From assembly GCA_964511065.1 (NCBI GenBank), contig CAZEEG010000010.1, forward strand, positions 1,796 to 65,795: a DNA stretch of 64,000 bases. The letters run 5' to 3'. Positions 4,512-56,393 of the stretch are shown here, piece after piece. Both the position numbers and the translations under genes were made by a program. The DNA is from an uncultured Pirellulales bacterium. Its GTDB lineage: Bacteria > Planctomycetota > Planctomycetia > Pirellulales > S012-138. The notes under the pieces were generated by a model. It made no database searches and was not told the origin of the DNA. It saw nothing but the letters and a program-made list of their open reading frames with translations. Numbering within the stretch: the stretch's first letter is position 1; each line of letters starts with the position of its first letter.

Positions 4512-7500
4512 TTACAGGTCGGGCCGCTGGATGACACCCTGCCGGTAGACGCCCACTTCGTCGATGCCGTCGCCGTCCCAGTCGGCCACCACAGGCATGT
4601 CGCCTGGTTGGCCGAACTCGATGTAGAGGTCGTCGGGATCGAAGGTGTGGTTGCCGTTGATGTCGATCATCCACTTGCCGTCGCGGAACACGCCCAGATC
4701 GGTGACGCCATCGCCATTGAAGTCACCAACCACCGGCATATCGCCGGCCTGGCCAAGCTCGACCATCGTTTCGCCGGGCAGCCAACGGCCATCGCCGTTG
4801 TCGTCCAGAATCCAGGTGCCGTTCATGAACACGCCGATGGTGTCCACGCCGTCGCCGTTCCAGTCGCCCGCGACCGGGATGTCTCTGGCACCGCCGAAGT
4901 AGAACACGTGGTCGATCACGTCGGTACGCAACTCGCCGTTGGCCGTGCGTTTGAGCGTGCGGTGGCCAAGGCTGGTGTCATATGGACGTGGCGGCATGTT
5001 CTTGCGGGCACCGGACGTTTCGTTCTGCCGGTCGGGCAAGCCCGGTTCGGACATGACAGCCCTGGGGTCGCCCGGCCATTCGGGGCCGAAGATGCCGATG
5101 TCGTCTTTGCCATCGCCGTCCCAGTCGCCTACCACGGGAAGGTCGCCGGCGTTGCCCAGTTTCGCCCACAGGTCGCCATCGTCCCAAACGCCGTTGCCGT
5201 TGAGATCGATGTACCAATGACCGTCGACGAAGACGCCCACTTCGGCGAACCCATCGCCGTTGAAGTCGCCGGCGATCGGGATGGCGCCCTCGCGGCCGAA
5301 GTTCAGCACCTGGTCTTCTGCGAGCCCTTCCTGCGGCAGGACAAAGTAGCCGTTTCGCAACTCGGCCTTATGGGTGCTGGTGAAGACATCGAACGTCGCG
5401 TCCGATACCGACACCAGCGATTCGCCCTCGGCACTGCCGCCGCGCGGATTACCGGCGTCGATCACGCTGAGGTGCCAGCTATAGGCCGAGGATTGAACCG
5501 TTCCGCCCGTGCCAAAATACAGGTCGATGTTGGAGTGCGGCGCCGAGACAAGCTGGGCCCCGTGGATCGGCGGACCCTGGGCGAAATGCAGCGGAGCCGG
5601 TTCGTTGAGCGGCAACTTGGGGGCCGGCGGTCCCGGCGGTGGCGGAGGCGGGATGAACGGCACCTCGGTCACCGCGATCTCGCTGAAGTTGTTGAACCGC
5701 GATTCTTGCGAGCCTACCACCGTAACGGCGGCAATCGCGTTGTAACCGTGATTGATGCCCGCCAGGGCCGGGTGCCCTTCGTTGCCAAAGTTGGCGGCCA
5801 CGCCGCCGGTCGTACCGGGCGTATCAATGCCGTCGTAGTAACCCTGAGGTTGGGCCTGAAGGATGACATACTGCCCCGGCGCCAGGCCAGAGAAGCGGTA
5901 GAAGCCGTTGGCATCGGTAAAGGTGGTTACCGGATTGCCGTTGGCATCGCGAATCAAGTTGCCGTTTGCATCGGCCAGGAACAGTTGGACGCCGGCCAGC
6001 GGTGTGTCGTCTGAGGTGAACTGGCCGTTACGCTGGCTTTGCAGCTCGATCAGGCTGGGCGTTTGGCCCTGGCGGATCATCACTGGCGGACCATCCTGGA
6101 ACACGTATCCGGAGATGCTGCCGGGTCCCACTTCGCAGAAGTGGTAATCCGTGGCATGCTGCGCGGCAGACAAGTGAATGCCGGTAATCAAGTCGCCCGG
6201 GTTGTGGGCGAAACCGCCCGCTGTACCGGCGTGGTCGTCGCTATCGTAGTAGCCGTCGGGCTGAGTCTCACGGAGGCTGTAGACGCCCGGTGCGACATTC
6301 TCGAACTTGAACTGGCCATCGGAATCAGTGAAGGTCGTGGCAACTACGTTGCCGTCCTGGTCCAGCAGTTCGATCTTGACGTTGGCGATGCCCGGCTCGC
6401 CCGGATCCCGGTGGCAATCGCCGTCATCGTCGCGGAACACGTACCCGGCAATGCTGCCAGGCGGCAGTTCGCCGAAGTTATAGTTCACGGCGTGTACGCC
6501 CTGGTTGAGCGTGATGTCGCGAATGGAGTCGCCCGGATTGTCCGGTGTGCCGCCCACGCTACCGGCGCTTTCCTGGCCGTCGTACCAGCCGGCGGGCTGT
6601 TCCACCTGCCGCACGGTATAGACGCCAGGTGGCAGGTGATCGAACTTGTAGAAGCCGTTGGAATCGGTCTTGGTTGTGCGGACGACGTTGCCATCTGCAT
6701 CGACCAGTTCCATTTCCACGTTGGCCAAGCCGGGCTCGCCAGAATCCCTGGTTCCGCTGTTGTTCATATCGCCGTAGACGTAGCCGGAAAGGCTCGCCGG
6801 CGGCAATTCGCCAAAGTTGTAGTTGGTGGCATCTTGGCCCGGGGCGAGCGACACGGAGGTGATCATGTCGCCCGGGTTTTGAGGCGTGCCACCGGCACTG
6901 CCTGCGGTATCCAGGCCGTCAAACCAGCCAGTGGGCTGTTCAACCTGCCGTACCGTGTAGGTGCCGTGTTCCAGGTTGTCGAACTTGTAGAAGCCGTTGG
7001 AATCGGTCTTGGTTGTGCGGACGACGTTGCCATCTGCATCGACCAGTTCCATTTCCACGTTGGCCAGGCCGGGCTCGCCGCCGTCCTTGGTACCGCTGTT
7101 GTTCAGGTCGCCATAGACGTAGCCAGAGAGGCTCGCCGGCGGCAGTTCACCAAAGTTGTAATTGGTGGCAACCTCGCCAATCGCCAGCGATACGCCCGTG
7201 ATACGGTCGCCCGGGTTGTGTGGCGTACCGCCGGCGCTGCCTGCGGTATCCAGGCCGTCAAACCAGCCAGTGGGCTGTTCAGCCTGCCGCACCGTGTAGG
7301 TGCCGTGTTCCAGGTTGTCGAACTTGTAGAAGCCGTTGGAATCGGTCTTGGTTGTGCGGACGACGTTGCCATCTGCATCGACCAGTTCCATTTCCACGTT
7401 GGCCAGGCCGGGCTCGCCGCCGTCCTTGGTACCGCTGTTGTTCAGGTCGCCATAGACGTAGCCAGAGAGGCTCGCCGGCGGCAATTCGGCAAAATCGTAT

Positions 7501-9224
7501 CCCGTGGCCTTCTCGTTGGAAGCAAGTGTGATGAACTTGATGTGGTCGTTGACCGATGTGTCGCCGCCGGCGGTGCCTGCTTTTTCGCCGCCATCGAAAT
7601 AGTTCGTAGGCTGCAGCTCGCGAATGGCATACGTGGCACCGGGCGTCAAATCGGTGAAGGTGTAGTAGCCGTTGGCATCGGTAACGGTCGATTGAACCAC
7701 ATTGCCATCGGCATCGAGCAGTTGTACGGTGACGCCCGCAATGCCGTAGTCGCTGCCGTCGAAAATGACGTTATCGTTATGGTCGGCGAAGACGCGGCCC
7801 GTCAGCGAAGCTGGTAACAACTCGCCAAAGTTGTACTGCTGGCCATGCTGCCCGCTGGCCGTGAACGAGACGTTGGTAATCGTATCGTTGCCAGCGAAAA
7901 CGCCGCCCAGGCTGCCGATGGAGTCCTTGCCGTCGAGCCATCCGCCCGAGGGCTGAATCTCGGTCACGGTGTAGACCTGCGTGGGATCGAGATTGCCAAC
8001 GGACCATGAACCATCGGCGTCGGTGGTGGTAAAGATCGGTGAACTGCCGCCGGAGCCGACAGCGTCGATCCGAATCTGCACACCGCCGATACCGGTCTCG
8101 CCAGCGTCCTTGATGCCGTCGTTATCGGCATCGTGATAGACATGCCCACTGAGGGTGCCTGGCAACGCCTCGCCAAACTTGTGGCCGGTGCTGTGCTCGC
8201 CGCCCAGCAGTTCGATGTCGGTAATGACGTCGTGATTGGCGACCGTTCCACCCGACCCGGCCGTCGAACCTGTGCTGAAATATCCGTCGGGCTGCGTTTC
8301 TACGATGCGGTACTTGCCTGGCTCATTGCTCGTGAAACTGAAATTGCCGTTGCTATCGGTTGTGGAGCGCAGGCCGGTGTCTTCCCACAGCCCCGTATCT
8401 TCGTTGAAGCGATAGAGCGAAAGCTCCACGTCGGGGATGCCAACTTCGCCGGTGTCGTGTTGCCCGTCCAGGTCGACGTCGTGGTAAACCGTACCGGAAA
8501 TGGTGAAGGGCGTCACCTGCTGCTGGGCGCTGAAACCGGTACCGGCGGTGCGCTCGTTGGTGCCTTCGGCCGGTGGCAGGTTGGCATCCAGCGGCACATC
8601 GACACTGCTGTCGATCATGTGATCGTAGTCATCATAGAACGTGCCGGTAGCGGTCAGATCATCGTGATGGCCGTTGGTATCGACCCACGTGGCGGTCAGC
8701 GTGGAGCCTTGGAACTCGGCACCGTCGACCAGCGAGTTGGGCGCTGAATCCAGTTCGTCCACGTCGACCAGGAAGATCAGCTTCTCGCCGGCTTCCCAGC
8801 CCTGCACATGAATGGTTATTGTGGTCTTGTCGGGTGACAACGACCAGTAGGTGATGTCCTCGGCCTTGATGTCTGAATCGTCGGCGATGGTGAATGGGAA
8901 ATATGGGCCAACACCCGGTGCGTCGCCGTCGACATCGAAGAACACGTCGCCGTTGTCGAGTATCCCGTTCTGGTTGATGTCGCCGGAGATTTCCAACTGG
9001 GTAAGCTGCGTTCCCTCGGCGCCGCCGGTCCAGGCAATTTCGAAGCGGTCACCTTCGGTCTCGAAGCTCGTCGACGACGTCTCGGTGAACACGGCCCCGA
9101 TGTGGATCGGGTCGGCCGATAGCATCAACCGCGATTCCATCTGCTCGAAGCGGCAGATTCGTGTCGTGCGCGACGTCTTGCGACCGGCGCTATCCTGGCG
9201 GCGCTGCTTCTTGAACCAGGCCAC
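4512..9224 (-). CDS. giant secreted/cell-surface repeat protein: N-terminal E-x-R-L-M-L-S motif, 8 SdrD-B/Cna-B-like domains, Pro-rich linker, C-terminal FG-GAP/VCBS repeats
   Basis: 1570 aa. The N-terminus is MAWFKKQRR...RFEQMESRLMLSADP. Eight ~113-aa units have the pattern SGYV(Y/F)xDxxxxGxxDxGExGxxxVxxxLxDxxGxxVxxTxTDxxGxYxFxxLxPGxYxVx(E/Q)xQP. The linker is PPPPPPGPPAP. At least six (I/V)xGD(F/W)(N/D)GDG...(V/I)G(V/I)F repeats follow. Confidence 0.9.
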   Translation of the reverse strand: MAWFKKQRRQDSAGRKTSRTTRICRFEQMESRLMLSADPIHIGAVFTETSSTSFETEGDRFEIAWTGGAEGTQLTQLEISGDINQNGILDNGDVFFDVDGDAPGVGPYFPFTIADDSDIKAEDITYWSLSPDKTTITIHVQGWEAGEKLIFLVDVDELDSAPNSLVDGAEFQGSTLTATWVDTNGHHDDLTATGTFYDDYDHMIDSSVDVPLDANLPPAEGTNERTAGTGFSAQQQVTPFTISGTVYHDVDLDGQHDTGEVGIPDVELSLYRFNEDTGLWEDTGLRSTTDSNGNFSFTSNEPGKYRIVETQPDGYFSTGSTAGSGGTVANHDVITDIELLGGEHSTGHKFGEALPGTLSGHVYHDADNDGIKDAGETGIGGVQIRIDAVGSGGSSPIFTTTDADGSWSVGNLDPTQVYTVTEIQPSGGWLDGKDSIGSLGGVFAGNDTITNVSFTASGQHGQQYNFGELLPASLTGRVFADHNDNVIFDGSDYGIAGVTVQLLDADGNVVQSTVTDANGYYTFTDLTPGATYAIRELQPTNYFDGGEKAGTAGGDTSVNDHIKFITLASNEKATGYDFAELPPASLSGYVYGDLNNSGTKDGGEPGLANVEMELVDADGNVVRTTKTDSNGFYKFDNLEHGTYTVRQAEQPTGWFDGLDTAGSAGGTPHNPGDRITGVSLAIGEVATNYNFGELPPASLSGYVYGDLNNSGTKDGGEPGLANVEMELVDADGNVVRTTKTDSNGFYKFDNLEHGTYTVRQVEQPTGWFDGLDTAGSAGGTPQNPGDMITSVSLAPGQDATNYNFGELPPASLSGYVYGDMNNSGTRDSGEPGLANVEMELVDADGNVVRTTKTDSNGFYKFDHLPPGVYTVRQVEQPAGWYDGQESAGSVGGTPDNPGDSIRDITLNQGVHAVNYNFGELPPGSIAGYVFRDDDGDCHRDPGEPGIANVKIELLDQDGNVVATTFTDSDGQFKFENVAPGVYSLRETQPDGYYDSDDHAGTAGGFAHNPGDLITGIHLSAAQHATDYHFCEVGPGSISGYVFQDGPPVMIRQGQTPSLIELQSQRNGQFTSDDTPLAGVQLFLADANGNLIRDANGNPVTTFTDANGFYRFSGLAPGQYVILQAQPQGYYDGIDTPGTTGGVAANFGNEGHPALAGINHGYNAIAAVTVVGSQESRFNNFSEIAVTEVPFIPPPPPPGPPAPKLPLNEPAPLHFAQGPPIHGAQLVSAPHSNIDLYFGTGGTVQSSAYSWHLSVIDAGNPRGGSAEGESLVSVSDATFDVFTSTHKAELRNGYFVLPQEGLAEDQVLNFGREGAIPIAGDFNGDGFAEVGVFVDGHWYIDLNGNGVWDDGDLWAKLGNAGDLPVVGDWDGDGKDDIGIFGPEWPGDPRAVMSEPGLPDRQNETSGARKNMPPRPYDTSLGHRTLKRTANGELRTDVIDHVFYFGGARDIPVAGDWNGDGVDTIGVFMNGTWILDDNGDGRWLPGETMVELGQAGDMPVVGDFNGDGVTDLGVFRDGKWMIDINGNHTFDPDDLYIEFGQPGDMPVVADWDGDGIDEVGVYRQGVIQRPDL
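6450..7486 (-). repeat. three tandem 339-bp (113-codon) in-frame repeats inside the giant protein gene; the two upstream copies share a 193-bp perfectly identical block
   Basis: The anchor GAAGCCGTTG recurs at 6651, 6990 and 7329, a period of 339. Positions 6952-7144 are identical to 7291-7483. The third copy (about 6450-6788) is more diverged. Confidence 0.9.
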
Positions 9225-9394: not shown

Positions 9395-10444
9395 CTATCG
9401 GGTGGGAAAGCCCGGCAGGTTAGCCGTGTTTCCCGGCCCGCGGCGATCGAGATTCCAGAGCATGATGGTCGTGTCGTAACTGCCCGAAATGAGCAGGTTG
9501 CGCTGGCGATCGAGGGTCAGCGAAGTCACGGTGCCCGTGTGGCCCACCAACCGATACAGTTCGGCCTGGTTGGGCAGGTCCCACACCCGCACCATGTTGT
9601 CGGTCCCGCCGGTCACCAGACGGTTGTTATCCAGGAAAAGCATCGTGAGCACGCGGCCTGGACGGCTGGGCAACGTGTGCAACAGTTCGCCCGATCGGAC
9701 GTCGTACACCGAGACATTCAGGCCTTCACCACCGGTGGCAACCTTGGAGCCATCGGGCGAGAATTCCACCGACCGCAACCGGCGGCGGTCGACTCGGATC
9801 TGGTGAAGCCGCTGCCCGCTGCCAATGTCCCAAATGGTCAACTGGCCGTCCTGTCCGACCGCGGCCAGCTTCTGACCATCAGGTGAAAATGCCAAGGCCC
9901 GCATATCGCGGCACGGGCATTCAAACTCGGTGAGCAGGTCGCCCTCGGTGCGGAACAAGCTCAACTTGGGCGTGAACCCAACCACACCAAACAGAGCACC
10001 TTGCGGATCGAATTGGGCGGCGTAGATCGCCGGGGTGTTCAACGACAATGCCCGCAGTTGTTCGCCGGTTTGCACGTCCCAGAACAAAATGGAACGGTCC
10101 TCGCCAGCGGAAATGAGCATCCGCCCATCACGGCTGAAGGATACGGTCCGCACCCAGTCTCGGTGGCCCCGCAGTACGCGGATCAACTGGCCGTCCTTCA
10201 CGTTCCAGACGCGGACAAAGTGATCGTCCCCGGCGGCGGCAATTTGCGCACCATCGGGGCTGATCGCCACCGTCGAGATCACCGAGGCCTGGGCCTGTGT
10301 CGGATCGCGCGGAACCTGGATGGTTTGCTGCGGTGGAATCACCGCGGGCGGGTCGGCCTGGGCGGCGGTGGAAAGTCCGAGTTGAATGGAAAGCACCAAG
10401 CCGCACGGTGCCAGCAAGGCCATTTGCCATCGCCGTGTCATCAT
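9395..10444 (-). CDS. secreted WD40-repeat (beta-propeller) protein
   Basis: Signal-like N-terminus MMTRRWQMALLAPCGLVLSIQLGLSTAAQA. Repeated GH...V.S..FSPDG..L.S...D..I..WD units occur about 7 times. Confidence 0.85.
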   Translation of the reverse strand: MMTRRWQMALLAPCGLVLSIQLGLSTAAQADPPAVIPPQQTIQVPRDPTQAQASVISTVAISPDGAQIAAAGDDHFVRVWNVKDGQLIRVLRGHRDWVRTVSFSRDGRMLISAGEDRSILFWDVQTGEQLRALSLNTPAIYAAQFDPQGALFGVVGFTPKLSLFRTEGDLLTEFECPCRDMRALAFSPDGQKLAAVGQDGQLTIWDIGSGQRLHQIRVDRRRLRSVEFSPDGSKVATGGEGLNVSVYDVRSGELLHTLPSRPGRVLTMLFLDNNRLVTGGTDNMVRVWDLPNQAELYRLVGHTGTVTSLTLDRQRNLLISGSYDTTIMLWNLDRRGPGNTANLPGFPTR

Positions 10445-10800
10445 AGCGGTTGAGCCCTTTGCAACGGGGAGCAGGGGGGATCATGGCGTACCCGTGGGGA
10501 CAGCTTGCGCGCAGCCGATCCTACCGGGACACTACCTTCTATCGGCCCGCTGCGCTCATTAAGGAAAGTCGAAATTGGCAAACATTGACGGCTGTTCCAC
10601 AACGGCCGAAAACTACGGCGGTTGGATGAACGGTGGAATGTTCCGATTGGGGGGGCAGCATACTGACAGGCAGCTTGGCGGCACGCTGAACGCGGCGCAT
10701 CGGTGCGATCAGCGCCGCCATGACCGGTATTGGCGGTCGTGCTGGCGCTGCCGTTACGGCTGGCACAATTTGGCATTTCCCGCCGTCCCGCAATGCGCAA

Positions 10801-25506: not shown

Positions 25507-25871
25507 AATGACGGCTTCCCATCAAATGTTTTAAAGGGCTGATCAAACTCCGGTCGCCCCTAGAGCGTGCTCAAGGCGCCGAAGAAGTCAAACAAAACGG
25601 ATTACTGCGGTTGAGTGGACGCCATCCACCCTGGTGGGCGATGGGTGGGCTGCCTCCACAATCGAGTTACCATAGTAACCAGTTCGCCCGCGCGAAACTA
25701 CCTGGACTCGCTCCTTGGAGGTGGTTCCGCTCGTGCAGCGGCAGGTCCGCGGCGGGACAAGGGCAGCCGCACCGCGAATGCTGATATGGTCGCGGCGTGT
25801 ACCGCTTCCCGCCGGCAGCGCCTAAACTGGAAATATGGACGGTTGCCGCACTTCTGGTGGAGTTCCCGCGA

Positions 25872-28448
25872 ATGCTCGACTTTGAACAACTCGGCGCGTT
25901 CTACCTGGGCCGAGAATTCGATCTGTCTGCCCGACGGCTTCGCGACGAACTGCTGCTTTACGACTCCAAAGACCTCACCACGCATGCAGTATGCGTGGGC
26001 ATGACCGGTAGCGGCAAGACCGGGCTTTGCTTGGGCCTGTTGGAGGAAGCGGCCATCGACGGTGTTCCCGCCATCGCCATTGACCCCAAGGGCGATCTGG
26101 GCAACCTGTTGCTGACGTTTCCCGAGTTGAAGCCCGAGGATTTTCTGCCGTGGATCGACCCGGCAGCGGCAGCCCGGGAAGGAAAAACGCCCGAGGAGTT
26201 TGCCGCCGAAACGGCCAAGCGGTGGCGGCAAGGGTTGGCCCAGTGGGGGCAAGGACCGGAGCGGATTGCCCGCTTTCGGGAAGCGGCCGATATCGCCATC
26301 TACACGCCCGGCAGTAGCGCCGGCCTGCCGTTGACTCCGCTGCGCTCGTTCGACGCGCCGCCGGCCGCGGTTCGCGACGATGGCGACCTGCTCCGCGAGC
26401 GTGTTACCTCGGCCGTCTCTGGATTGCTGGGCCTGATCGGCGTGAATGCCGATCCGGTTCGCAGCCGCGAGCATATCCTGCTGGCCAATCTGCTCACCTT
26501 GGCCTGGCAGCAGGGGCAAGGACTCACCATTCCCGATCTCATTCGCCAGGTTCAGTCGCCGCCCATCGCCACCGTGGGCGTGGTCGATCTGGAAACATTC
26601 TTCCCCACCAGGCAGCGGGCGGAACTGGCGCTGGCCCTCAATAACCTGTTGGCTTCGCCAACGTTTGCCGGCTGGATGGAGGGGGAACCGTTGGACATTC
26701 AGCGGTTGCTGTATACCGATGCCGGCGGGCCACGGCTATCCATTGTCTCAATTGCTCACCTCTCCGACGCCGAGCGGATGTTCTTCGTCACGCTGCTGCT
26801 GGGCGAAGTCCTGGCTTGGGTGCGGGCGCAGGCGGGAACGTCCAGCCTGCGTGCCCTGCTGTACATGGACGAAATTCAGGGGTATTTTCCGCCCGTCGCA
26901 AATCCCCCTTCCAAGGCGCCGATGCTGACGTTGCTCAAGCAGGCCAGGGCGTTTGGGCTGGGGGTGGTGCTGGCAACGCAAAACCCCGTGGACCTGGATT
27001 ATAAAGGACTCTCCAACACCGGCACGTGGTTCATCGGTAGATTGCAGACCGAACGCGACAAGGCCCGCGTGCTTGAAGGGCTCGAAGGAGCCTCCGCACA
27101 AGCCGGTGCGGCGTTCGACCGCCAGCAAATGGAACAAACCCTGGCGGCATTGGGGCAGCGCGTGTTCCTGATGAACAACGTGCACGAAGATCGGCCGGTG
27201 ATCTTTCAAACCCGCTGGGCATTGTCGTACCTGCGCGGTCCGCTGACGCGCACGCAAATTCGCCAACTGACCGAGCAGCGCCTGGCAGCGAAGGGCCAAG
27301 GCGGCGAAGCCTCGGGAACGACCAGCGCCCCGTCGTCCCCGCCGCAAGTGGTCGGTTCTGCGACACCGGAAGACGTTCTGTTGCCCGACGATCTGTTCGC
27401 CGATGCGGCCGTGCCGGGAGACGCACCGCCCAAGGCACAAGCATCGCGCGGGCCTCTGCCCACTTCATCTCTGCCGGCGGCGCCGTCTGAAGTTTCGGCG
27501 GCTAGTTCGCCCTCTGGCATGCGGCCGATTCTGCCGGCAGAGGCGGGCGAGTGTTTCCTGGTAACAAAAACAGCGACGCCTGGCGAAACCGCCAGCTACC
27601 GGCCTGCGCTGCTGGCTCGTGCGCGGTTGCATTTCGTGCAAAGTCGCAGCCAGGTCGACCACTGGGAGGAGCTAGCACTGCTGTGTCCTTTGACCAGCGA
27701 CGATTTGCCCAATCCGCTGTGGAACCATGCTCAACTGATTGAGCCCGGCAAGCTGCATACCGTCGATGAGCCCGTCAAGGGAGCCACCTTTGCGGCCCCG
27801 CCGGCAGAAGTGCTGCGAGCCAAGAGCTACAGCGGCTTCGCAACCAAGTTAAAGGACTATCTCTATCGAAACCGCACGCTGACGTTACACCGCTCACCCG
27901 AACTCAAAATGGTTTCTCGGCCGGGTGAGAGTGAGCGCGATTTTCGTGCCCGGGCGGCACAGGTGGCCCGAGAGCATCGCGATGAAGCCAAGGAACACTT
28001 GCAATCGCGGTATGCCTCGAAGCTTGATACTTTGCAGCGGAAGATTCACACGGCTGAAGCCCGCGTCGCCCGGGAGAAAAGCGAACTGCAGCAGGCATCG
28101 CTGGCGACGACGGTTTCGTTGGGAGAATCCATCTTCGGGAGCTTGTTTGGCCGCAAGCTATTGAGCCGGACCAATGTCAGCCGGGCGTCGCGGACGGTGC
28201 GCGGCTTGGGGCGGGCACGCCAGCAACAAGCCGATGTCGCCCAAGCCGAAGCGGCACTCGCGCGGCTGCTCGAGGAGCGGGCCGAGCTGGGGCGGGAGTT
28301 GGAACAGGAACTGGCGAAGATCGCTCACGATTTCCACCCCGACCGCTTGAAGCTGGAACCCGTGGTGATTCGCCCTCGCAAGTCGGACATCCAGGCGGAA
28401 CCGGTCCGACTGGTATGGATTCCGGTTTCCACTTCTGGCATGCCATGA
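25872..28448 (+). CDS. HerA/DUF853(YjgR)-like P-loop NTPase with long C-terminal low-complexity and coiled-coil extension
   Basis: Walker A is VGMTGSGKTG, followed by IAIDPKGDL as in YjgR/HerA-type ATPases. The Walker B-like stretch is ALLYMDEIQ. The C-terminal ~350 aa contains a Pro/Ser/Ala-rich stretch and heptad-like helices. Confidence 0.7.
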   Translation: MLDFEQLGAFYLGREFDLSARRLRDELLLYDSKDLTTHAVCVGMTGSGKTGLCLGLLEEAAIDGVPAIAIDPKGDLGNLLLTFPELKPEDFLPWIDPAAAAREGKTPEEFAAETAKRWRQGLAQWGQGPERIARFREAADIAIYTPGSSAGLPLTPLRSFDAPPAAVRDDGDLLRERVTSAVSGLLGLIGVNADPVRSREHILLANLLTLAWQQGQGLTIPDLIRQVQSPPIATVGVVDLETFFPTRQRAELALALNNLLASPTFAGWMEGEPLDIQRLLYTDAGGPRLSIVSIAHLSDAERMFFVTLLLGEVLAWVRAQAGTSSLRALLYMDEIQGYFPPVANPPSKAPMLTLLKQARAFGLGVVLATQNPVDLDYKGLSNTGTWFIGRLQTERDKARVLEGLEGASAQAGAAFDRQQMEQTLAALGQRVFLMNNVHEDRPVIFQTRWALSYLRGPLTRTQIRQLTEQRLAAKGQGGEASGTTSAPSSPPQVVGSATPEDVLLPDDLFADAAVPGDAPPKAQASRGPLPTSSLPAAPSEVSAASSPSGMRPILPAEAGECFLVTKTATPGETASYRPALLARARLHFVQSRSQVDHWEELALLCPLTSDDLPNPLWNHAQLIEPGKLHTVDEPVKGATFAAPPAEVLRAKSYSGFATKLKDYLYRNRTLTLHRSPELKMVSRPGESERDFRARAAQVAREHRDEAKEHLQSRYASKLDTLQRKIHTAEARVAREKSELQQASLATTVSLGESIFGSLFGRKLLSRTNVSRASRTVRGLGRARQQQADVAQAEAALARLLEERAELGRELEQELAKIAHDFHPDRLKLEPVVIRPRKSDIQAEPVRLVWIPVSTSGMP

Positions 28449-47643: not shown

Positions 47644-50142
47644 TTAGCCATCCGCCACCACTTCCGGCGTGCTGGGGATGATTTCTGGCGGGGGTTCGGA
47701 GAGCGCGCGCTCGAGCGAGTTGAGTTGCTCGTCGATGGCAGCATGTTCAACATCGCTCAGCGAATGACAGCCGAAGCGCACCCGGTAGAACAACTCGGTC
47801 AACCGCCGGGGAACCGACGCGAGGGCGGCCGTTCCCGGACGCTCGGCCAGGTCGGCGCCCACGGAAACGGCGAATTCCCGCTGGGTTTGGGTGCGGCGGC
47901 GCTGGAATTGGGCATCGGCGAGAATCTGCTCCAGGCGCCGATAGAAGTAGATTTCCGAAAGGTTGGCAGCGGCCGATGATTCTGGGGTTCGGGTACGTTT
48001 GCGGCGCAGCCATCTGCGCAGCCAACGATAAGCAAACAGCAGCAGCAGTTGAGCCCCGAAGGCCACCACGCCCGCCTGCCAACTGATCCAGCGATAACCT
48101 GCATCGCCACCGCTGAACAGGGCTTTGACATCCCTCCACCAGGCGGCCCAAGCATTGCCGTCGAACAGTTCAGCAAACGGTGTGTAAATGCGCTCTGTTT
48201 GCGTTTGCGGGTTCATGCCCAACACATACTGCGACCACAGCACTTCGGCCATGTCGCCGATATGTTGCACCTGCGACCAGGTTGTGGCTGTCAGGTCCGC
48301 ACGGCCGGGGGTGGCATCCAATCGCAGCCATGCATGCCGCAGACCATAGTTCTCCACCCAACGATTGTTCCGCAGGCGGCCCCGCAGGCCCTGTCCCCGC
48401 TGCATGCGGCGGGAGTAAGAGGTGGCCCACGCGCGATCGGGGCGTGGCTGAAACTCCGGCGGCACATACTCCGGCGGAATCAAGGCTTCCACCCAGGCGT
48501 GCGCGTGCCATTGCCGGACAAGGCAACTGCCGGTCTCGAAGTCCCATTCACCGCCCTTGTAACCGGTGACAACCCGGGCCGGGATATCCTGGCTGCGGAG
48601 CATCAACGCCAGCACGGTGGCAAAGTACTCGCAGTGGCCGCTCTTGCTGTTCAGCACGAAGTCTTCAGCCGGATCGAGGTCAGTTTGCCTCCGCCGGCGC
48701 GATAACGAGTAAGAGTAGATCCCCGAATCGCGCAAATGCGATTCCAAGGCCTTGGCCTTGGCCACTGGATCATTGCGCTGGCTTTCCGGCAGGCTGGCGA
48801 CGACTTCGGCCGCAACCGCTTTCAGGCCCCTGAGCGGGTCTTCGCCCACCCCGGTCGGCAACGATAGCAGGTCGCGCATCTCCTGCACGGAAATATCCGT
48901 GAGGATGGTCCACCGGAACGGCAGTTGTCTGCCGCTCTTGAAGCCCGTGGTGACGTGCTGATAGGTCACGGTCTCGGTGCGGAAAACCTCGTGGCAGATC
49001 AGCCGCTCTTCGAGCGGGTCGAAATAAACGTGCGTTTCACTCTCCAGCCCAAAGAACGGGTAGATGGCGAACAGTACGTCGGAGATTTTGCGTGAGGGAC
49101 CGTGTGACGGCAGCGGCTGAATCTCAATTTCGACCGCCACCAGGTCATTGGTCGACGAAACTTGGGCCGCTTCAAACGGCGAAAGCGGATCGGCGTGTAC
49201 CAGCTTGGCCAGGTGATCGTTCGTCGAGTACCACTCGCCGTTGCGGTAGATCAACCGCCGCGAACTGCCGCGGAAATAAATGTTCTCACGATCCAGGATG
49301 GCATAATGCTGGTCGGTCCGCATGTCGCGGAACCGGGCCACCAGGACTTCCTCCGGGTCTTGCAGCACTTGGGTGAACTCGCCGCCCACCAGCGAAACAT
49401 CCTCGGTAAACCCCACCGTCGCTTGAAGGCCGGAACCGGCGCCCCACGAACCGCGGGAGGACGTCGTCCGCGGAATGACGACAAACACCAGCGGAGCGAC
49501 GAGCAGAGTGATCAGGCCAGTGCGCATGGTCGGCCCCCAAAGTCCCCGCAGGCGCGGTGCGTGGCGCCGTTTCTGTCGGCCTTTCAGCACCAGTGGGCGG
49601 TATAGCAGCGGCCAGCGCGCATGGTCCGGTTCGGCGGCTACCCTGCGGAGCCATTGGCTGCCGGCCTGTTCGTATTCCTCGCGATACACCAGGAACATCG
49701 ACAGCGAGTAGACGGCCACGAACATGTAGAGCACCATCAACACGCCGAACAGCGGGCTTAAGCTGATGACCGCCGACACCGCCACCTGCAGGAAGCTCAG
49801 CAGCACGATCATGCCGTAAATGCGCGGAGACTTCTGCCGGAGGAACAATACGGCCTGGAGATAGACCAGCAGATTGGAGAGGGCCAGGAACAGCGCCTGT
49901 TTGTCGTCCAGGTTGCGATAGACATCGCGCAGGGCAAAGAGCGTTACCGTGAGGCCGGCCAGGTTCGCCGCACCACTTCCCAGCAAGAGCCAACCTTTGA
50001 AGTCGGTCAGAATGAAGCCGATGGCAGCGGCCGCGACCGTCAGCATCGGAAGCTGAAAGTCTTCCTTTTCCCAGCCCAGGATCAATGAGCCGCATGTCGC
50101 CAGGACGGCGATGGCAATCTGCAAGCGTCGTTCGAGCCTCAT
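47644..50142 (-). CDS. TgpA-like transglutaminase-domain membrane protein
   Basis: The N-terminal part is a multi-TM region (DUF3488-like). The transglutaminase core has SGHCEYFATVLALMLRS (Cys), HAWVE (His) and a C-terminal TM segment. Confidence 0.85.
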   Translation of the reverse strand: MRLERRLQIAIAVLATCGSLILGWEKEDFQLPMLTVAAAAIGFILTDFKGWLLLGSGAANLAGLTVTLFALRDVYRNLDDKQALFLALSNLLVYLQAVLFLRQKSPRIYGMIVLLSFLQVAVSAVISLSPLFGVLMVLYMFVAVYSLSMFLVYREEYEQAGSQWLRRVAAEPDHARWPLLYRPLVLKGRQKRRHAPRLRGLWGPTMRTGLITLLVAPLVFVVIPRTTSSRGSWGAGSGLQATVGFTEDVSLVGGEFTQVLQDPEEVLVARFRDMRTDQHYAILDRENIYFRGSSRRLIYRNGEWYSTNDHLAKLVHADPLSPFEAAQVSSTNDLVAVEIEIQPLPSHGPSRKISDVLFAIYPFFGLESETHVYFDPLEERLICHEVFRTETVTYQHVTTGFKSGRQLPFRWTILTDISVQEMRDLLSLPTGVGEDPLRGLKAVAAEVVASLPESQRNDPVAKAKALESHLRDSGIYSYSLSRRRRQTDLDPAEDFVLNSKSGHCEYFATVLALMLRSQDIPARVVTGYKGGEWDFETGSCLVRQWHAHAWVEALIPPEYVPPEFQPRPDRAWATSYSRRMQRGQGLRGRLRNNRWVENYGLRHAWLRLDATPGRADLTATTWSQVQHIGDMAEVLWSQYVLGMNPQTQTERIYTPFAELFDGNAWAAWWRDVKALFSGGDAGYRWISWQAGVVAFGAQLLLLFAYRWLRRWLRRKRTRTPESSAAANLSEIYFYRRLEQILADAQFQRRRTQTQREFAVSVGADLAERPGTAALASVPRRLTELFYRVRFGCHSLSDVEHAAIDEQLNSLERALSEPPPEIIPSTPEVVADG

Positions 50143-50446
50143 CCGGTTTCTCCTGCCTCACCCCGCTGCTGGGGCGCCGGCACTGCACCGATCATGGAGC
50201 CTGCGGTCGATCATTTTGGGTTGTGCGCCACGCTGGATCGTAGGCAAGTCGCCGTTGCCTAGCGCCCTGGCTGCGCGCGTGGAAACATGGTTCCGGCCAA
50301 GGGCCTTGGGCAATCCACTGCGTACGGATTTGCGGGTGAAACCGCACGCAGCAGGAATTTCATCAATCGAGAAGTATTGGCTGATTTCTTGGGGGGAATG
50401 TTTTGAAGCCCCCAGCGGGGGCCGCTTGGGGCGCATTACCTGGCAA

Positions 50447-51631
50447 TTATAACGCCTGGTAATACCTCAATATATCAGAACTGCTGGCGTCAATCAGCAA
50501 TACCTTGCCGAAGAGGCCTTGCTTGCGGGAGTCTTGCCGCATTTCATCCACCAGGCTCTCGTCCGTCAAATCGACGTTGCGCGTGCTGACCAGCACGATA
50601 TCGCAATGAGGCGGTAACTGATCGAAAGCTTCCGTCAGCAGTTTGCCCAGGTGGTTGGAGTTTCCGGCCGAAACGGCGGCCAGGTGTTCCATGGCTTCGG
50701 TGAAGAGACCGCGCGAGGCCGGGCCGCGCGTGATATCGACCGTGGCGCCGGCCGTGCCAAGCAGCAGTTGGCTCTGGCCCCGATGGCACATGTCCGACAC
50801 CACCGTGGCGGCGAAGCTTACCGCGAGTTCGACACTCTCCAGGTCGCTGCTGCTGTAGGACTCGGGCACCCACAAATCGAGCAGCAGCGCCAAATCGTGG
50901 TGTCGCTGCCGCTCGAATTGCCGCACCATCGGCATGCCTCGCCGCGCCGTGGTGCGCCAGTGGATCCAGCGTTGGCTGTCGCCGTGGCGGTAATCGCGCA
51001 GCGCGTGGAAGTCGCCTTCCATCAGGCCTTGCTGTCGCTTCACCGGGCGGCTGCCGTGGTATGTGGACTGCAAACGCTCCTTCCAGGCGGGCGTCAACTG
51101 GCCAGTGCGGGGAAAAACGATGATCTCGTCCTTCAACATATGCACCACCGTCCGCCGCACCAGCCCTAACGGGAAACGCGTGGTCACCTTGAGCGGCCCC
51201 AACTCGTAGCGTCCGCGGGCAGGCACGATTCCCTCGTAGGCTTCAGTCAGCGTTTCGTCCGGACTGATCCGACTGAACAACACGCCGGGCCGCAATGCGA
51301 CCCCGTTGAACGAAAGCGAGGTGAGTTTGTCATCGACCCGAACCGCCCAACTCGTTCGCTTGCCTTCGTTGGTGGCCTTGATATCGACCACCAGCTTTTC
51401 GCCGGCCACGATCGAACTGGGGGCTGAACGGCTGACCCGGATCTTGCGGAGCGAATGGGCCACGATCCGCCAGTTGACGTACATTGGGCCGATCATCAGG
51501 CCAAAGAGCAGGATGAGCAGGTTCATCTGCCGCAGCAGCGCTCCGGCCAGGATGAACCCCATGATGCCCAGGAAATACCAGCCCTCCAGGGTGATGGTCG
51601 TATGGTACTGACGGCGCGGCTTTCGTTTCAT
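50447..51631 (-). CDS. DUF58-domain protein
   Basis: Two N-terminal TM segments are present. The hallmark DFHALRDYRHGDSQRWIHWRTTARRGMPMVRQFE is present. The start was chosen at MKRKPRR. Confidence 0.85.
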   Translation of the reverse strand: MKRKPRRQYHTTITLEGWYFLGIMGFILAGALLRQMNLLILLFGLMIGPMYVNWRIVAHSLRKIRVSRSAPSSIVAGEKLVVDIKATNEGKRTSWAVRVDDKLTSLSFNGVALRPGVLFSRISPDETLTEAYEGIVPARGRYELGPLKVTTRFPLGLVRRTVVHMLKDEIIVFPRTGQLTPAWKERLQSTYHGSRPVKRQQGLMEGDFHALRDYRHGDSQRWIHWRTTARRGMPMVRQFERQRHHDLALLLDLWVPESYSSSDLESVELAVSFAATVVSDMCHRGQSQLLLGTAGATVDITRGPASRGLFTEAMEHLAAVSAGNSNHLGKLLTEAFDQLPPHCDIVLVSTRNVDLTDESLVDEMRQDSRKQGLFGKVLLIDASSSDILRYYQAL

Positions 51632-52097
51632 GTCCGTCGCGCTACCTTCAATCGGAAGATGGCGGGGGGAGTCGGAACGGGGGGGGGTGGCCCTCAGCGT
51701 CCCTGCGGGGGGATTCATCCGACGACCGCTGTATTCATTATGGCAGCACGGTCCAGTTGCTGCGATGCCCTAGCTGCCCGCTTTGCCGAGGTGTGACTTG
51801 CCGTCTGTTCTGCCAGTTTTTGCCAGTTTGGATTCTGCTGTCTGAGGTGCAGGTTCCACCGCGCGGCGGGCTTGCCGGGGGCGGTGGAGGCGTTTGCGGA
51901 TGCGGCGACTGGCAATTGCTCCCCAGGTTGCGTAGGTTATGGGCGTTCGCACGGGCGAACCCACCGATAGAGCCAGCGCCCCAACAGGTTGCTGGAGTCA
52001 CGGGGCGTTTGCCGAGCGGGCGTGTCATACCATCGATCGAAGGTCGGCCCAATGCGGCTGGCTGGTGATGTCAACACACACGTAAAGGATTGCCGCT

Positions 52098-53092: not shown

Positions 53093-53473
53093 TTACTTGG
53101 CTTCCCGCTGGTCCTCCGGCCCGTACCGCCCGCGGTATTGTTCCACCGGGTACTTGATGGCGTTCTTCACCATCTTTTTGCGGACCGTCGTGGAGATGTC
53201 GATACCCAGCTCATTGGCCAGTGCCAGGGTGTAGCCGAACACGTCGGCGATTTCCTCGCTGACGGCGGCCAGTTTGTCGGGCTGGTTAGCAAGCTCGCGC
53301 GATTCTTCGATGGTGAGCCATTGGAAGTGTTCCATGAGTTCGGCCACTTCCACCATCAGGGCCATGCAGATGTTCTTGGGAGCATGGAAACTTTGCCAGT
53401 CGCGCTCATCGACGAACCGCCGCATATTTTCCCGCAATTCGGCGACGGTCGTTTCGGCGTCAGTGCGATCCAT
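53093..53473 (-). CDS. MazG-type nucleoside-triphosphate pyrophosphohydrolase (single-domain, dCTPase-like)
   Basis: Motifs are FVDERDW..FH.PKN, MVEVAELMEHFQW and EEIADVFGY.LALAN. The ATG at 53473 overlaps the upstream gene by 14 nt. Confidence 0.8.
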   Translation of the reverse strand: MDRTDAETTVAELRENMRRFVDERDWQSFHAPKNICMALMVEVAELMEHFQWLTIEESRELANQPDKLAAVSEEIADVFGYTLALANELGIDISTTVRKKMVKNAIKYPVEQYRGRYGPEDQREAK

Positions 53474-54428
53474 GTTGCTTGACCATGGGTGAAGCCAGGG
53501 CATCAAATCCCGGCAGAAACTGCTGCCGAGGAGGTGTCTGACGCTCACGATACTGCCGGCGGTAGCAATCCGCCAGCCGGGTCATGACTTCCAGCCCCAG
53601 CAAATCGGCCCGGTTGAACACGTGTCGGCTGCTGCGATTGCCCAATCCTGCCAAGGTATCTTCCAGCACATACAGGTGCAGTTGCAGGAGTTGGCGACCG
53701 GAGATTCCGGCCCTGGCCAGCAACTCGGCCAGGTGGCACACTTCGCGCCGCAGGTGTCCCGAACCCATGATGACATAGGCCCGCAGTAGTTGTTGGTAAT
53801 GGCTGATGAGCTCGTCGGGCAGGGGGTGTTCGTCGCCGGCGTTGAACAATGCGCCGTCGTCGCCCACGGCCAACTCGGCCAGTTCCCCCAGTAGCCGGCG
53901 GGCTTCGGAGTGTTCTGCGGCCAACCGCGATTCTTCCGCCTGGGAGAGCCGCCGCACTTGCCGCATTAGGTGTTGGCGCTCGGCGGCCCTGGCGACGACC
54001 CAGATCAGGTGCGCCAGCGTGGCCGTTTGTTCGCACACGTACGCATCGCCGCCGGCCTGGTAACAGGCGACGGCCATATCTGCCTCGTTCCCGTGGCCAA
54101 TTACAATCACGGCTTCTTCGGCGCCGCCGGCACGCATGGCCTGCGTGAAGGCCACGGCATCCAGGCCGTCGGGTTCGTGCGGCAGAATGACGGCGTCGAA
54201 GATTTCGTCGCGCAGCCGGGCCATTCCGGCGGCCACGCCCTGCACTTCGATCAGCGTGATTTCCAGTTCCTCAATACCCACCAAACCATCCAGCAGCATG
54301 CCGCCCAGTCGCCGATGCGTGGCGACGTACAGAATCCGTAGCCGTTTGGGGACAGGGTGGGGATGCTGCGAATCGGCCGTTTCCGCCGCTGAATTCCGAG
54401 GATGCGTGAGATGCAAAGCTGAGGGCAT
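53460..54428 (-). CDS. pseudo-receiver domain protein with C-terminal RsbU_N (KaiA/RsbU helical) -like domain
   Basis: The receiver-like fold (RILYVATHRR...FDAVILPHEPDGLDAV...VIVIGHG...) lacks the acidic pocket and the phospho-Asp. The C-terminus (ISHYQQLLRAYV...LLQLHLYVLEDTL...LLGLEVMTRLADCYRRQ) parallels B. subtilis RsbU residues ~10-90. The start is uncertain because no SD is present. Confidence 0.55.
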   Translation of the reverse strand: MPSALHLTHPRNSAAETADSQHPHPVPKRLRILYVATHRRLGGMLLDGLVGIEELEITLIEVQGVAAGMARLRDEIFDAVILPHEPDGLDAVAFTQAMRAGGAEEAVIVIGHGNEADMAVACYQAGGDAYVCEQTATLAHLIWVVARAAERQHLMRQVRRLSQAEESRLAAEHSEARRLLGELAELAVGDDGALFNAGDEHPLPDELISHYQQLLRAYVIMGSGHLRREVCHLAELLARAGISGRQLLQLHLYVLEDTLAGLGNRSSRHVFNRADLLGLEVMTRLADCYRRQYRERQTPPRQQFLPGFDALASPMVKQHGSH

Positions 54429-54653
54429 GTCGAACCGTTCGCCAGGAGAATCGACCCGCCAAGAAAGGATGCGAAGCGGGTGGGACTCTACCCAAGGCTT
54501 CGCGGCACGGCAAGGTAAAGTAGGGAAGCCGGCCGTAAAGGAAACACTGCTGCGTTGCTGAGCGACGCTTCGACCCGCTCGGGGACACAGCTTGCATGGG
54601 GGCAGCGCTGTCTCGGCAGTACCCGCCGCTGGCAACAGTCAGGAGGTAGACTG

Positions 54654-56393
54654 CTAGCCCCGTTGCCATCCGCGCCGTTCTTTCTTGGCGAGTAGGGCTT
54701 GCGAATGCGCAGCGACCTGCTTCCATAGGGCCTTCCAGTCGCTGCCATCTTCCAGCGTGGCCACGTAAGCCTGCAAGAATCGCACGCAATGGCTGCGGCG
54801 GATGCGAGGGTGCAGCACAAGCGACGCTGCAAGACGGGCCAGGTTGCGTGCCCGCTCCCGGTTGCGAAGCCACACGCGGACGCGGAGGCCGTCGAGGTCG
54901 ATGATGGCCGTCTCCACCTGATCGCCGCGCTGCACCGCCAGCAGGTTGCCCCATTTCAGGTCGCGGTGGGCGATCCGCCAGCGGTGCAAGTTGCCAATCA
55001 ACTGCCCCAGGCTGGCCGCCGTCGATCGGGCAAGCCGCTCGCCTTCGGCCCGAGGCAAGTCCGCCAGTCGCCAGGCAAACAGGTGCAGGTTCTCGGCCCC
55101 ATCGATCCATTGGGTTGCCAGGTAGCTGTCGCGGCCTGGCGGGTCGATCACGCAAAGCGGTCGGGCCGTGGCGACCGCCCGCTGCCAAAGCGCTTGGCCG
55201 CGATACCAACTGGCCAAGGCTCGGGACCGACGCAGCGGTGCCAGCCACCGCTTCCATCCACCAACCAGGCGGCACCGCTTCCAGGCGATCTTGGTCGGTA
55301 CGCCGTCCACGATCAACTCCGCCTGGACCAACACGCTGGTGTGCGACAGTTTCAACGGATGGTGGTGAAACTGGGCCAGGATGGCCTCGGGATTGGCGGC
55401 GAGCTCGCCCAGTGTCTCAGGGCTGATGGAGCGAATGGCGTGAACCCGGGTTCGCCCCCACCGAAAACTCTGAAAGTCGCGGTTGTTGCGCAGCGCTCGC
55501 CGATCGCGACCGCGCATGTTTCGGCAGGCGAATGCCCTGGCCACGGCGGCCACTTCGGCGGCGGCGCGGCGAGGGCAGGCCAGTTGCAGGTCGGTTCGAT
55601 GCGTCAGGTAGGCGCGCCAGAATCGCCAGCGGTCCGTGCGGCTGGTGACGGCGATCATGCCGGCTTGCAGCATCACGAGGTTATTTCGAGTCTGCCGCCA
55701 CGAAAGCGGCCGCGTGAAGCGGACTCCCGGCAGGTCGATCAGGTGCAATCGCGGCCAAGGCAACACTCGGTCGCCAGTACGGTCGGCCGCTTCATGAAGG
55801 GAGTCTGGAGTTGAGCCGTCCGGGCCGGTGGGCGGTTCCCAGGTCACCAGCAGGTTGCCGGCATGCAAGTCGTCCTGCACCACTCCGTGCGAGTGCAGCT
55901 TGGCACAGAAGGCGGCCAGGGCACGTGTCAGCCGGTGTCGCAGCACGGTTCTTGAGCGAGGGCTATAGTGGCTCAGATACTCCACCACGCACGTATCCAG
56001 CGGGATCGCGCCCGGCAGGGCCTCGGTCACAAAGAAGTTGTCGAGCACCAAGCCGTGGCGGCGTTGTTCGCCGTATCCGATCGCATGGGCGGTCGGCACG
56101 CGGCGGCGAGAAACCTCGCGCATCTTGCGAAATTCGCGCCGCGCGGCACTGGCCCTGACGAGCGTTCGGCCGGCCCGGCCCACGGACGTGCAACGATAGT
56201 GCTTGACGTAAACGCTTTGGTCGCCCAGGTCCACACGGTATACAGTTCGATGTTCACCGGTCTTGACGATGCTGGCCTGGCCGTTTTCAAGCCATTGCTT
56301 GAGCGGCAATCCGCCCTGGTTCAGCAGACGCGATTCCCAACCTGGTGACAGATGCCAGTCGATTGGGCCAGATTGCTGAACGCCGCCGCTCAC
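54654..56393 (-). CDS. protein with two tandem lipopolysaccharide-kinase (Kdo/WaaP/RIO-like) family domains
   Basis: GTG start with AAGGAA upstream. The first domain has TVYRV...VYVKHY...DDLHAGNLLV...LIDL. The second domain has IAHRDLKWGNLL...AIIDLDG. Confidence 0.7.
   Translation of the reverse strand: MSGGVQQSGPIDWHLSPGWESRLLNQGGLPLKQWLENGQASIVKTGEHRTVYRVDLGDQSVYVKHYRCTSVGRAGRTLVRASAARREFRKMREVSRRRVPTAHAIGYGEQRRHGLVLDNFFVTEALPGAIPLDTCVVEYLSHYSPRSRTVLRHRLTRALAAFCAKLHSHGVVQDDLHAGNLLVTWEPPTGPDGSTPDSLHEAADRTGDRVLPWPRLHLIDLPGVRFTRPLSWRQTRNNLVMLQAGMIAVTSRTDRWRFWRAYLTHRTDLQLACPRRAAAEVAAVARAFACRNMRGRDRRALRNNRDFQSFRWGRTRVHAIRSISPETLGELAANPEAILAQFHHHPLKLSHTSVLVQAELIVDGVPTKIAWKRCRLVGGWKRWLAPLRRSRALASWYRGQALWQRAVATARPLCVIDPPGRDSYLATQWIDGAENLHLFAWRLADLPRAEGERLARSTAASLGQLIGNLHRWRIAHRDLKWGNLLAVQRGDQVETAIIDLDGLRVRVWLRNRERARNLARLAASLVLHPRIRRSHCVRFLQAYVATLEDGSDWKALWKQVAAHSQALLAKKERRGWQRG

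Follow-up and report, generated by a model that had tools for sequence, protein, structure and literature searches.

Three genes that lie side by side on the minus strand of a planctomycete contig raise the question of what the middle one encodes, and with which of its two neighbours it belongs. The DNA analysed here, called the window throughout, is a stretch of 64,000 nucleotides (nt; 64 kb) from an uncultured Pirellulales bacterium (assembly GCA_964511065.1, contig CAZEEG010000010.1). A preliminary description of this DNA had read the three genes, namely a Kdo/WaaP-type kinase gene (G1), a gene for a receiver-like protein with a helical C-terminus (G2) and a gene for a MazG-type nucleoside triphosphate (NTP) pyrophosphohydrolase (G3), as one signalling module. 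The present analysis points to a different arrangement. G2 is predicted to have the architecture of KaiA, and on balance we consider it probable that the protein is a Pirellulales-wide, phosphorylation-independent adaptor that is ancestrally paired with the MazG gene, the kinase being an incidental neighbour.

Domain structure of the G2 protein

G2 and its parts have the following coordinates in the window.

53460..54428, minus strand: G2, 322 residues, with the KaiA architecture of a pseudo-receiver, a long helix, a KaiA-like four-helix bundle and a conserved tail
54018..54350, minus strand: G2 pseudo-receiver, residues 27-137, a (beta-alpha)5 fold without the acidic pair, the phospho-Asp, the Thr/Ser and the Lys; His84 and Gly111 are invariant
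53865..54017, minus strand: G2 linker helix, residues 138-188 (51 residues), highly conserved and charged, with the motif RENRRLxQAERxRLxREHDEA; secondary structure taken from AlphaFold2
53538..53822, minus strand: G2 KaiA-like four-helix bundle, residues 203-297, assigned by Pfam, a PDB profile search, hhalign and Foldseek
53463..53537, minus strand: G2 C-terminal tail, residues 298-322, PPxQxxLPGF, with Q302 and L305 invariant and P299, P306 and G307 nearly so; model confidence is low to moderate

The window protein alone stays below the threshold of the Pfam Response_reg family (PF00072; 14.8-15.3 bits against a cut-off of 30.2). A profile built from 48 relatives of G2 aligns to the receivers of RssB, DrrD and CheY with E-values down to 5e-8, and its alignment to the RssB receiver plus helical linker reaches profile position 185, covering the linker helix of G2. 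As read from the alignment to the DrrD profile, the window protein carries Ala and Thr at the acidic pair, Pro at the phospho-Asp position, Gly at the Thr/Ser position and Glu at the Lys position. The same loss is seen throughout the family. Among 121 relatives the phospho-acceptor position is never occupied by Asp (0/121) and is Ser in 101; the Lys position is Val in most of them; and all 121 carry His directly after the lost phospho-Asp (SHEP) and Gly at the Thr/Ser position.

AlphaFold2, run on the alignment of the 48 relatives, gave a model with an overall pLDDT (predicted local distance difference test score) of 87.5 and values above 90 in the receiver part, which adopts a (beta-alpha)5 fold with strands at residues 29-36, 56-63, 79-84, 106-111 and 129-132 and helices between them. 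Beyond the receiver the model shows the helix 138-188 and, after a short stretch of disorder, four helices at 205-297. Foldseek searches with this model matched receiver domains, with template modelling (TM) scores of up to 0.83 on the target. Judged by its residues, the receiver domain of G2 is unable to use Asp phosphorylation. The N-terminus had first been described as a receiver fold devoid of phosphorylation residues, and the profile alignment, the 121 relatives and the AlphaFold2 fold all bear this out.

For the C-terminal bundle, the closest match is KaiA. The Pfam KaiA family is matched by 38 of the 48 relatives (best E-value 4.1e-6; the count goes by E-value and not by the Pfam gathering score), and RsbU_N by 20 of the 48 at E ≤ 0.1 (best 9.6e-6). 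When a profile of the C-domain was compared with the PDB at E ≤ 10, eight distinct sequences were returned, all of which are KaiA (best 2.1e-4, the whole KaiA C-domain being covered), and RsbU chains were absent among these matches. With hhalign, the same profile aligned to residues 187-283 of Synechococcus elongatus KaiA with a probability of 80.5% and an E-value of 1.3e-5, and to residues 1-100 of Bacillus subtilis RsbU, a sequence entered by hand, with a probability of 31.8% and an E-value of 4.9e-4.

The predicted structures rank in the same order. A separate AlphaFold2 model of the C-domain (pLDDT 89.4) was submitted to Foldseek, and the top eight matches were all KaiA C-domains (TM 0.53-0.67, probability 0.96-1.0), while the RsbU_N structure 2j6z took rank 47 (TM 0.43/0.62). 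With the model of the complete protein, full-length KaiA (4g86_A) aligned over 313 columns. By profile comparison and predicted structure, the G2 bundle is a homologue of the KaiA C-domain and probably a more remote relative of RsbU_N.

The preliminary description had assigned this C-terminus to the RsbU_N pattern. That assignment holds at the level of the KaiA/RsbU superfamily, and the hhalign alignment with RsbU reproduces the helix pairing then drawn; the bundle is, however, nearer to KaiA than to RsbU_N. The wider proposal, that a pseudo-receiver followed by a helical domain of this superfamily amounts to the architecture of KaiA, agrees with both the hidden Markov model searches and the predicted structure. 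The RsbU N-terminal domain (PF08673; 1W53, 2J6Z) shares the helical-bundle superfamily with G2, but in G2 the domain stands at the C-terminus without a PP2C phosphatase fused to it, and no rsbT, rsbV or rsbW genes were seen nearby. Neither Pfam nor NCBIfam gave a PP2C or SpoIIE match in G2, and the protein ends 25 residues past the bundle. According to the description of KaiA3 (PMC11372060), the fold is seldom seen and, KaiA3 apart, is known only from KaiA and RsbU_N.

Distribution of the G2 family and its gene neighbourhood

A search returned 263 relatives of G2, and in the best 120 of these 263 the alignment covers 86-100% of the query. Relatives are encoded in at least 244 species-level genomes, nearly all of which are labelled Pirellulales, Thermoguttaceae, Lacipirellulaceae or Pirellulaceae. 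Among 1.84 billion representative proteins, the C-domain profile matched no more than 405 clusters with an E-value limit of 1e-3; limits of 1e-10 and 1e-30 left 304 and 106, respectively, the 304 clusters of the family being counted at 50% identity. Across the order G2 is strongly conserved (identity of approximately 45-50%), and each of its three parts, as well as the tail, contains invariant residues. On these sequence data the family is compact and taxonomically narrow. Three members of the Pirellulales-type family (L037, L076 and P0046) come under the titles of Granulosicoccus, Acidobacteria or Thermomicrobiales metagenome-assembled genomes (MAGs); such titles probably reflect binning errors rather than a true occurrence outside Planctomycetes.

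The downstream gene, its overlap with G2 and the element in the upstream gap are as follows.

53093..53473, minus strand: G3, MazG-like gene, 126 residues, encoding a DCTPP1/RS21-C6-type all-alpha NTP pyrophosphohydrolase
53460..53473, minus strand: overlap of G2 and G3, 14 nt, with the G3 ATG at 53473-53471 and the G2 TGA at 53462-53460, by direct reading of the sequence
54485..54514, minus strand: promoter-like element in the gap between G1 and G2, CTTGCC followed by TA(G/C/A)AGT across the window clade and TTGCCG-N17-TAGAGT (54513-54485) in the window, about 57 nt upstream of the G2 ATG

The G3 product matches the Pfam MazG-like family (PF12643; E-value 8e-16, 58.5 bits against a cut-off of 27) and aligns over residues 5-116 to the mouse and human DCTPP1/RS21-C6 structures 6sqw and 2a3q at an E-value of 4e-20. 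Its acidic metal-binding motifs, EVAELMEHF and SEEIADV, are intact, and by sequence the enzyme looks catalytically intact. Its likeness to DCTPP1/RS21-C6 (6SQW, 2A3Q, 2OIE) lies in this alignment and in the acidic motifs. Unlike these enzymes, however, G3 is bacterial, has only 126 residues, lacks the eukaryotic C-terminal extension, and sits directly downstream of a KaiA-like gene in over half of the sampled Pirellulales loci, often overlapping it.

The start of G3 is backed by its homologues, since tblastn alignments to 44 loci open at query residue 1-5, and the closest relative locus (L001) shows an identical 14-nt overlap of G2 and G3. In-frame starts further upstream (GTG at 53548 and ATG at 53503) were considered and rejected, as the homologue N-termini give them no support. 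Public gene calls at 100% identity agree in length with G2 (P0001, 322 residues) and G1 (P0121, 579 residues), and the GC content stays at 0.59-0.66 over the region without a break. The map first drawn of the locus is thereby confirmed in its open reading frames (ORFs) and domains: three co-directional minus-strand genes, the last encoding a MazG-type NTP pyrophosphohydrolase whose start lies upstream of the G2 stop codon by the 14-nt overlap.

The genes of the window were then mapped onto 80 species-level loci that carry a G2 relative, each taken with 8 kb on either side; 76 of them have enough room downstream to be informative for MazG. In 42 of these 76 loci a MazG gene lies downstream of G2, in the same orientation and no more than about 620 nt away; a limit of 5 kb raises the count to 44 (55-58%), and the count over all 80 loci is 44-45. 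An overlap of the two genes, 1-34 nt long, is present in 8 loci. The loci bearing MazG are scattered across the whole G2 tree; therefore, the arrangement is ancestral and has been lost repeatedly. The other neighbours of G2 in the window served as an internal control: bioF, mutS and the gene for the SGL lactonase are retained beside G2 in only 1-2 of the 80 loci.

An all-against-all clustering of the flanking ORFs revealed no widely conserved neighbour besides MazG and larC. The latter gene, which encodes the nickel-insertion protein for the nickel-pincer cofactor, is the usual gene on the upstream side of G2 and lies there divergently in 37 of the 80 loci (Pfam Ni_insertion, 2e-142; for example at 6600-7820 on the minus strand of L040). 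It is absent at the window locus, though G2 is kept there, and this neighbour has been lost in the window lineage. Beyond larC in one locus (L085, 5230-7975) come an SBP_bac_10 gene and nikR.

The kinase gene, by comparison, was found upstream of G2 in only two of the 80 loci (L001 and L002). Their G2 proteins are 74% and 61% identical to that of the window, respectively, and are its nearest relatives in the G2 tree. The adjacency is confined to one clade, so it represents one event. With regard to the conservation of the gene neighbourhood across Pirellulales, the G2-MazG part of the original proposal stands (42-44 of 76 loci), whereas the kinase part does not (2 of 80).

A gap of 225 nt separates G1 from G2. 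In an alignment of this gap from the window, L001 and L002, the promoter-like element proved to be the best-conserved block, and its exact pattern occurs in only 3 of 81 G2 upstream regions, those of the same three loci. This pattern suggests that G2 probably has its own promoter, and the kinase gene is probably transcribed separately. A search of the gaps against Rfam returned nothing meaningful with regard to RNA elements.

Taken with the domain assignments, these neighbourhoods are consistent with the preferred reading of G2 as an adaptor paired with MazG. The adjacency of G2 and MazG is ancestral and the two genes often overlap, which makes co-transcription probable. Of the nearby genes, MazG is the strongest candidate for a functional link to G2; it may be a direct target of G2 or may only be co-expressed with it. 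G1 is most likely a planctomycete gene in its own right, conserved widely, which came to lie upstream of G2 in a single lineage. In KaiA, KaiA3 and RsbU, the bundle is a dimerisation and partner-binding module that docks KaiC or RsbT (PMC11372060), and by analogy G2 would most likely be a dimeric adaptor whose bundle would clasp a stretch of a partner protein. Input other than phosphorylation, in the form of a ligand or another protein, would come through the pseudo-receiver, and the conserved helix would contribute input or further contacts.

Several observations weigh against this reading and should be set out together. When the window G2 was searched alone, neither Pfam KaiA nor RsbU_N gave a match at E ≤ 0.1. 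The Foldseek E-values for so small a bundle are weak (0.1-0.7), though the ranking is clean, and the identity of G2 to KaiA is only 17-22%. The pairing with MazG is dispensable, because 31 loci with room (about 40% of the informative ones) have no MazG downstream, and the pairing could reflect inherited gene order and not function. In a subclade around Lacipirellulaceae/Bythopirellula, G2 and MazG belong to a longer block of DUF255, larC, G2, MazG, ATP-grasp_3, a Metallophos_2 phosphoesterase and GNAT (L016, L018, L027, L032, L034, L041, L063 and others), which looks like an inherited order of unrelated housekeeping genes. The scan for promoters and terminators found nothing, the element upstream of G2 being below the consensus threshold, and such a scan is uninformative for planctomycetes. 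Finally, the presence of the kinase gene beside G2 in three genomes counts, if only weakly, as evidence of a link.

It may be added that the ATP-grasp gene downstream of MazG in L040 (9425-10587) appears to be split over two frames (9425-9997 and 9823-10587), owing to either a frameshift or an assembly error.

Alternative partners for G2

Four other explanations were weighed. According to the first, G2 directly binds and regulates the adjacent DCTPP1-like MazG enzyme, gating the hydrolysis of a (d)NTP when the pseudo-receiver senses a signal. No same-strand neighbour other than MazG is widely conserved, the stop and start codons overlap in several lineages, which suggests that the two are expressed stoichiometrically, and the enzyme has kept its metal-binding acidic motifs. 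Nevertheless, the adjacency is missing from the sizeable share of informative loci given above, and no DCTPP1-type enzyme is known to need an adaptor. Direct regulation of MazG by G2 is in our judgement unlikely.

The second explanation holds that G2 is a true functional counterpart of KaiA or KaiA3, acting on a KaiC-type ATPase encoded elsewhere in Pirellulales genomes, with or without KaiB, as part of a non-cyanobacterial Kai-type timer or switch. The architecture speaks for it. Like KaiA (PF07688; 1R8J, 4G86, 5C5E), G2 combines a receiver without the phospho-acceptor Asp, a helical linker and a C-terminal four-helix bundle. KaiA is the sole solved family matched by the C-domain profile and supplies the best fold matches, and its signature residues (YRE, NL, the His of helix 3 and HLxExYRR) align with those of G2 in both HMMER and hhalign. 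KaiA3 (Sll0485), a chimera of about 300 residues that joins a receiver with intact Asp to a KaiA-like C-terminus and is likewise present outside Cyanobacteria, shows proteins of this build to be partners of KaiB3C3 in a setting other than the standard clock (Kobler et al. 2024, PMC11372060).

The differences are nonetheless considerable. G2 belongs to Pirellulales and not to Cyanobacteria, and its neighbours are MazG and larC; its linker is a single helix of 51 residues; it bears the extra conserved tail PPxQxxLPGF; and its receiver resembles ordinary receivers of the RssB/DrrD type more than the KaiA N-domain. With the register set by hand from the HMMER and hhalign alignments, the position of His271 of KaiA is taken by Arg in the window protein, and of the 121 relatives only 89 have His there. 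KaiA3, for its part, keeps a phosphorylatable D65, whereas none of the 121 relatives of G2 has Asp at that position. KaiA3 is moreover syntenic with kaiB3, and usually with kaiC3, and co-occurs with both; the described kaiA and kaiA3 genes are always syntenic with kaiB, with or without kaiC (PMC11372060).

Around G2, by contrast, KaiB and KaiC probes, entered by hand, found no match in the 64-kb window or in the 80 loci (best E-value 0.67). No ORF with a double Walker A motif exists in the window, where the Walker A scan returned a PilT-like protein, an 887-residue P-loop protein and MutS. Both searches agree with the earlier statement that the window is free of kaiB and kaiC. In the literature, no paper was found on the Pirellulales G2 family, nor any reporting KaiB or KaiC in Pirellulales. 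All in all, we regard a Kai-type function of G2 as quite doubtful.

The 887-residue ORF (25785-28448, plus strand) contains a single Walker A motif, GMTGSGKTG. A MAG named 'Planctomycetaceae TMED241' carries a whole kaiABC operon of the cyanobacterial type (Dvornyk and Mei 2021), which is a separate matter from the G2 family.

The third explanation is the model of the preliminary description itself, in which the kinase, the adaptor and MazG form one module and G2 docks the Kdo-type kinase as RsbU_N docks RsbT, coupling it to nucleotide hydrolysis. The kinase gene and its two domains are located as follows.

54654..56393, minus strand: G1, kinase gene, 579 residues, with a GTG start preceded by AAGGA
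55581..56291, minus strand: G1 kinase domain 1, about residues 35-271, with K64, QDDLHAGN (D175, N180) and IDLPG (D220); NCBIfam RfaP matches residues 36-271
54759..55376, minus strand: G1 kinase domain 2, about residues 340-545, with K372, HRDLKWGN (D478, N483) and IDLDG (D499); the best Pfam Kdo stretch is 383-543

G1 matches Pfam Kdo (PF06293) in two stretches at an E-value of 4.6e-25 (88.7 bits against a cut-off of 21.3), and the WaaP structure 6dfl aligns to it twice, at residues 35-203 and 417-544. In an alignment of 114 full-length relatives, the beta3 Lys is kept in 112 sequences for domain 1 (K64) and in 111 for domain 2 (K372), the catalytic Asp and Asn in 114 each for D175 and N180 and in 113 and 111 for D478 and N483, and the metal-binding Asp in all 114 for both D220 and D499. 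Because the catalytic residues are kept in at least 111 of the 114 relatives, both kinase halves look catalytically competent. The initial view of G1 as two tandem Kdo/WaaP-type kinase domains with catalytic motifs is thus upheld by Pfam, 6dfl and residue conservation alike.

Both halves match the WaaP/RfaP and Kdo kinase family (PF06293; 6DFL) and have kept its catalytic Lys/Asp/Asn/Asp set. G1 differs from that family in that two domains share one polypeptide of about 570 residues, and in that its neighbours vary and do not include waa genes for the lipopolysaccharide core, none of which was found beside G1 in the window or beside its homologues in L081 and L083. A search returned 185 relatives, and the best 120 of the 185 are mostly 540-620 residues long, one being from Gemmataceae. 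The tandem double Kdo/InaA kinase of about 570 residues is a conserved family of its own in Pirellulales and Gemmataceae. The homologue in L081 (6001-7707) adjoins the flagellar export genes fliP, fliQ, fliR and flhB, and the one in L083 (6001-7767) has miscellaneous neighbours. A role in defence was also considered and rejected, as PADLOC returned only weak cross-matches to the kinase domain.

In favour of a three-gene module, the trio is co-directional and adjacent in the window, L001 and L002 and persists down to 58-61% amino-acid identity; the kinase and G2 families both occur across Pirellulales; and the domains of the KaiA/RsbU fold described so far bind kinases or autokinases (PMC11372060). 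The synteny tells otherwise: the kinase is adjacent in a single clade, 225 nt with a conserved promoter-like block lie between it and G2, and the kinase homologues examined elsewhere adjoin flagellar export or miscellaneous genes and never G2. In addition, the fold of the kinase is protein-kinase-like, with no relation to that of RsbT (GHKL) or KaiC (RecA-like). The C-domain of G2 is closer to KaiA, and therefore the analogy with the docking of a kinase by RsbU_N gives no specific support for a link with the Kdo-type kinase. The claim that the three genes make up one signalling module is not supported by these data, and a function of G2 in docking G1 is very unlikely.

The last explanation, that G2 is an atypical response-regulator-like transcription factor whose helical C-domain binds DNA and controls the divergent larC, is highly improbable: larC is indeed a frequent divergent neighbour, with nikR beyond it in L085, the C-domain is rich in conserved Arg, and Joint Genome Institute (JGI) pipelines label G2 relatives as OmpR- or NarL-type regulators, but these names follow the receiver domain only, no DNA-binding domain (helix-turn-helix, GerE or Trans_reg_C) was matched in G2 by Pfam, NCBIfam, PDB profile or Foldseek, and the window locus has kept G2 without larC.

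Elsewhere in the window, a gene for a DUF58 protein (50447-51718) is followed by one for a TgpA-like membrane transglutaminase (47644-50142; TgpA_N, Transglut_core and DUF4129), both within 47644-51718 on the minus strand. This DUF58/TgpA-like pairing is common and unrelated to the findings on G2.

Implications for the KaiA fold

KaiA has so far been treated as specific to cyanobacteria, in agreement with its reported presence in Cyanobacteria only (Schmelling et al. 2017). The accepted exceptions are KaiA3, which always comes with kaiB3C3, and RsbU_N. An order-wide planctomycete family with the full architecture of KaiA and no kai genes nearby is a third, independent setting for the adaptor fold. 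The family hence bears on the origin of KaiA and on what the KaiA fold can bind, and G2 with MazG provides a clean two-gene unit for asking whether such adaptors regulate nucleotide-sanitising enzymes.

A bolder interpretation, which we put forward tentatively and consider possible rather than probable, is that the G2 family is a genuine ancient homologue of KaiA that works without neighbouring KaiBC. It would then either be an adaptor for a different target, possibly tied to control of the nucleotide pool through the co-operonic MazG, or take the part of KaiA in a so far unrecognised Kai-like system for timing or switching in non-photosynthetic planctomycetes. If this is true, Cyanobacteria would not have invented the fold and architecture of KaiA, nor would clocks be their only setting.

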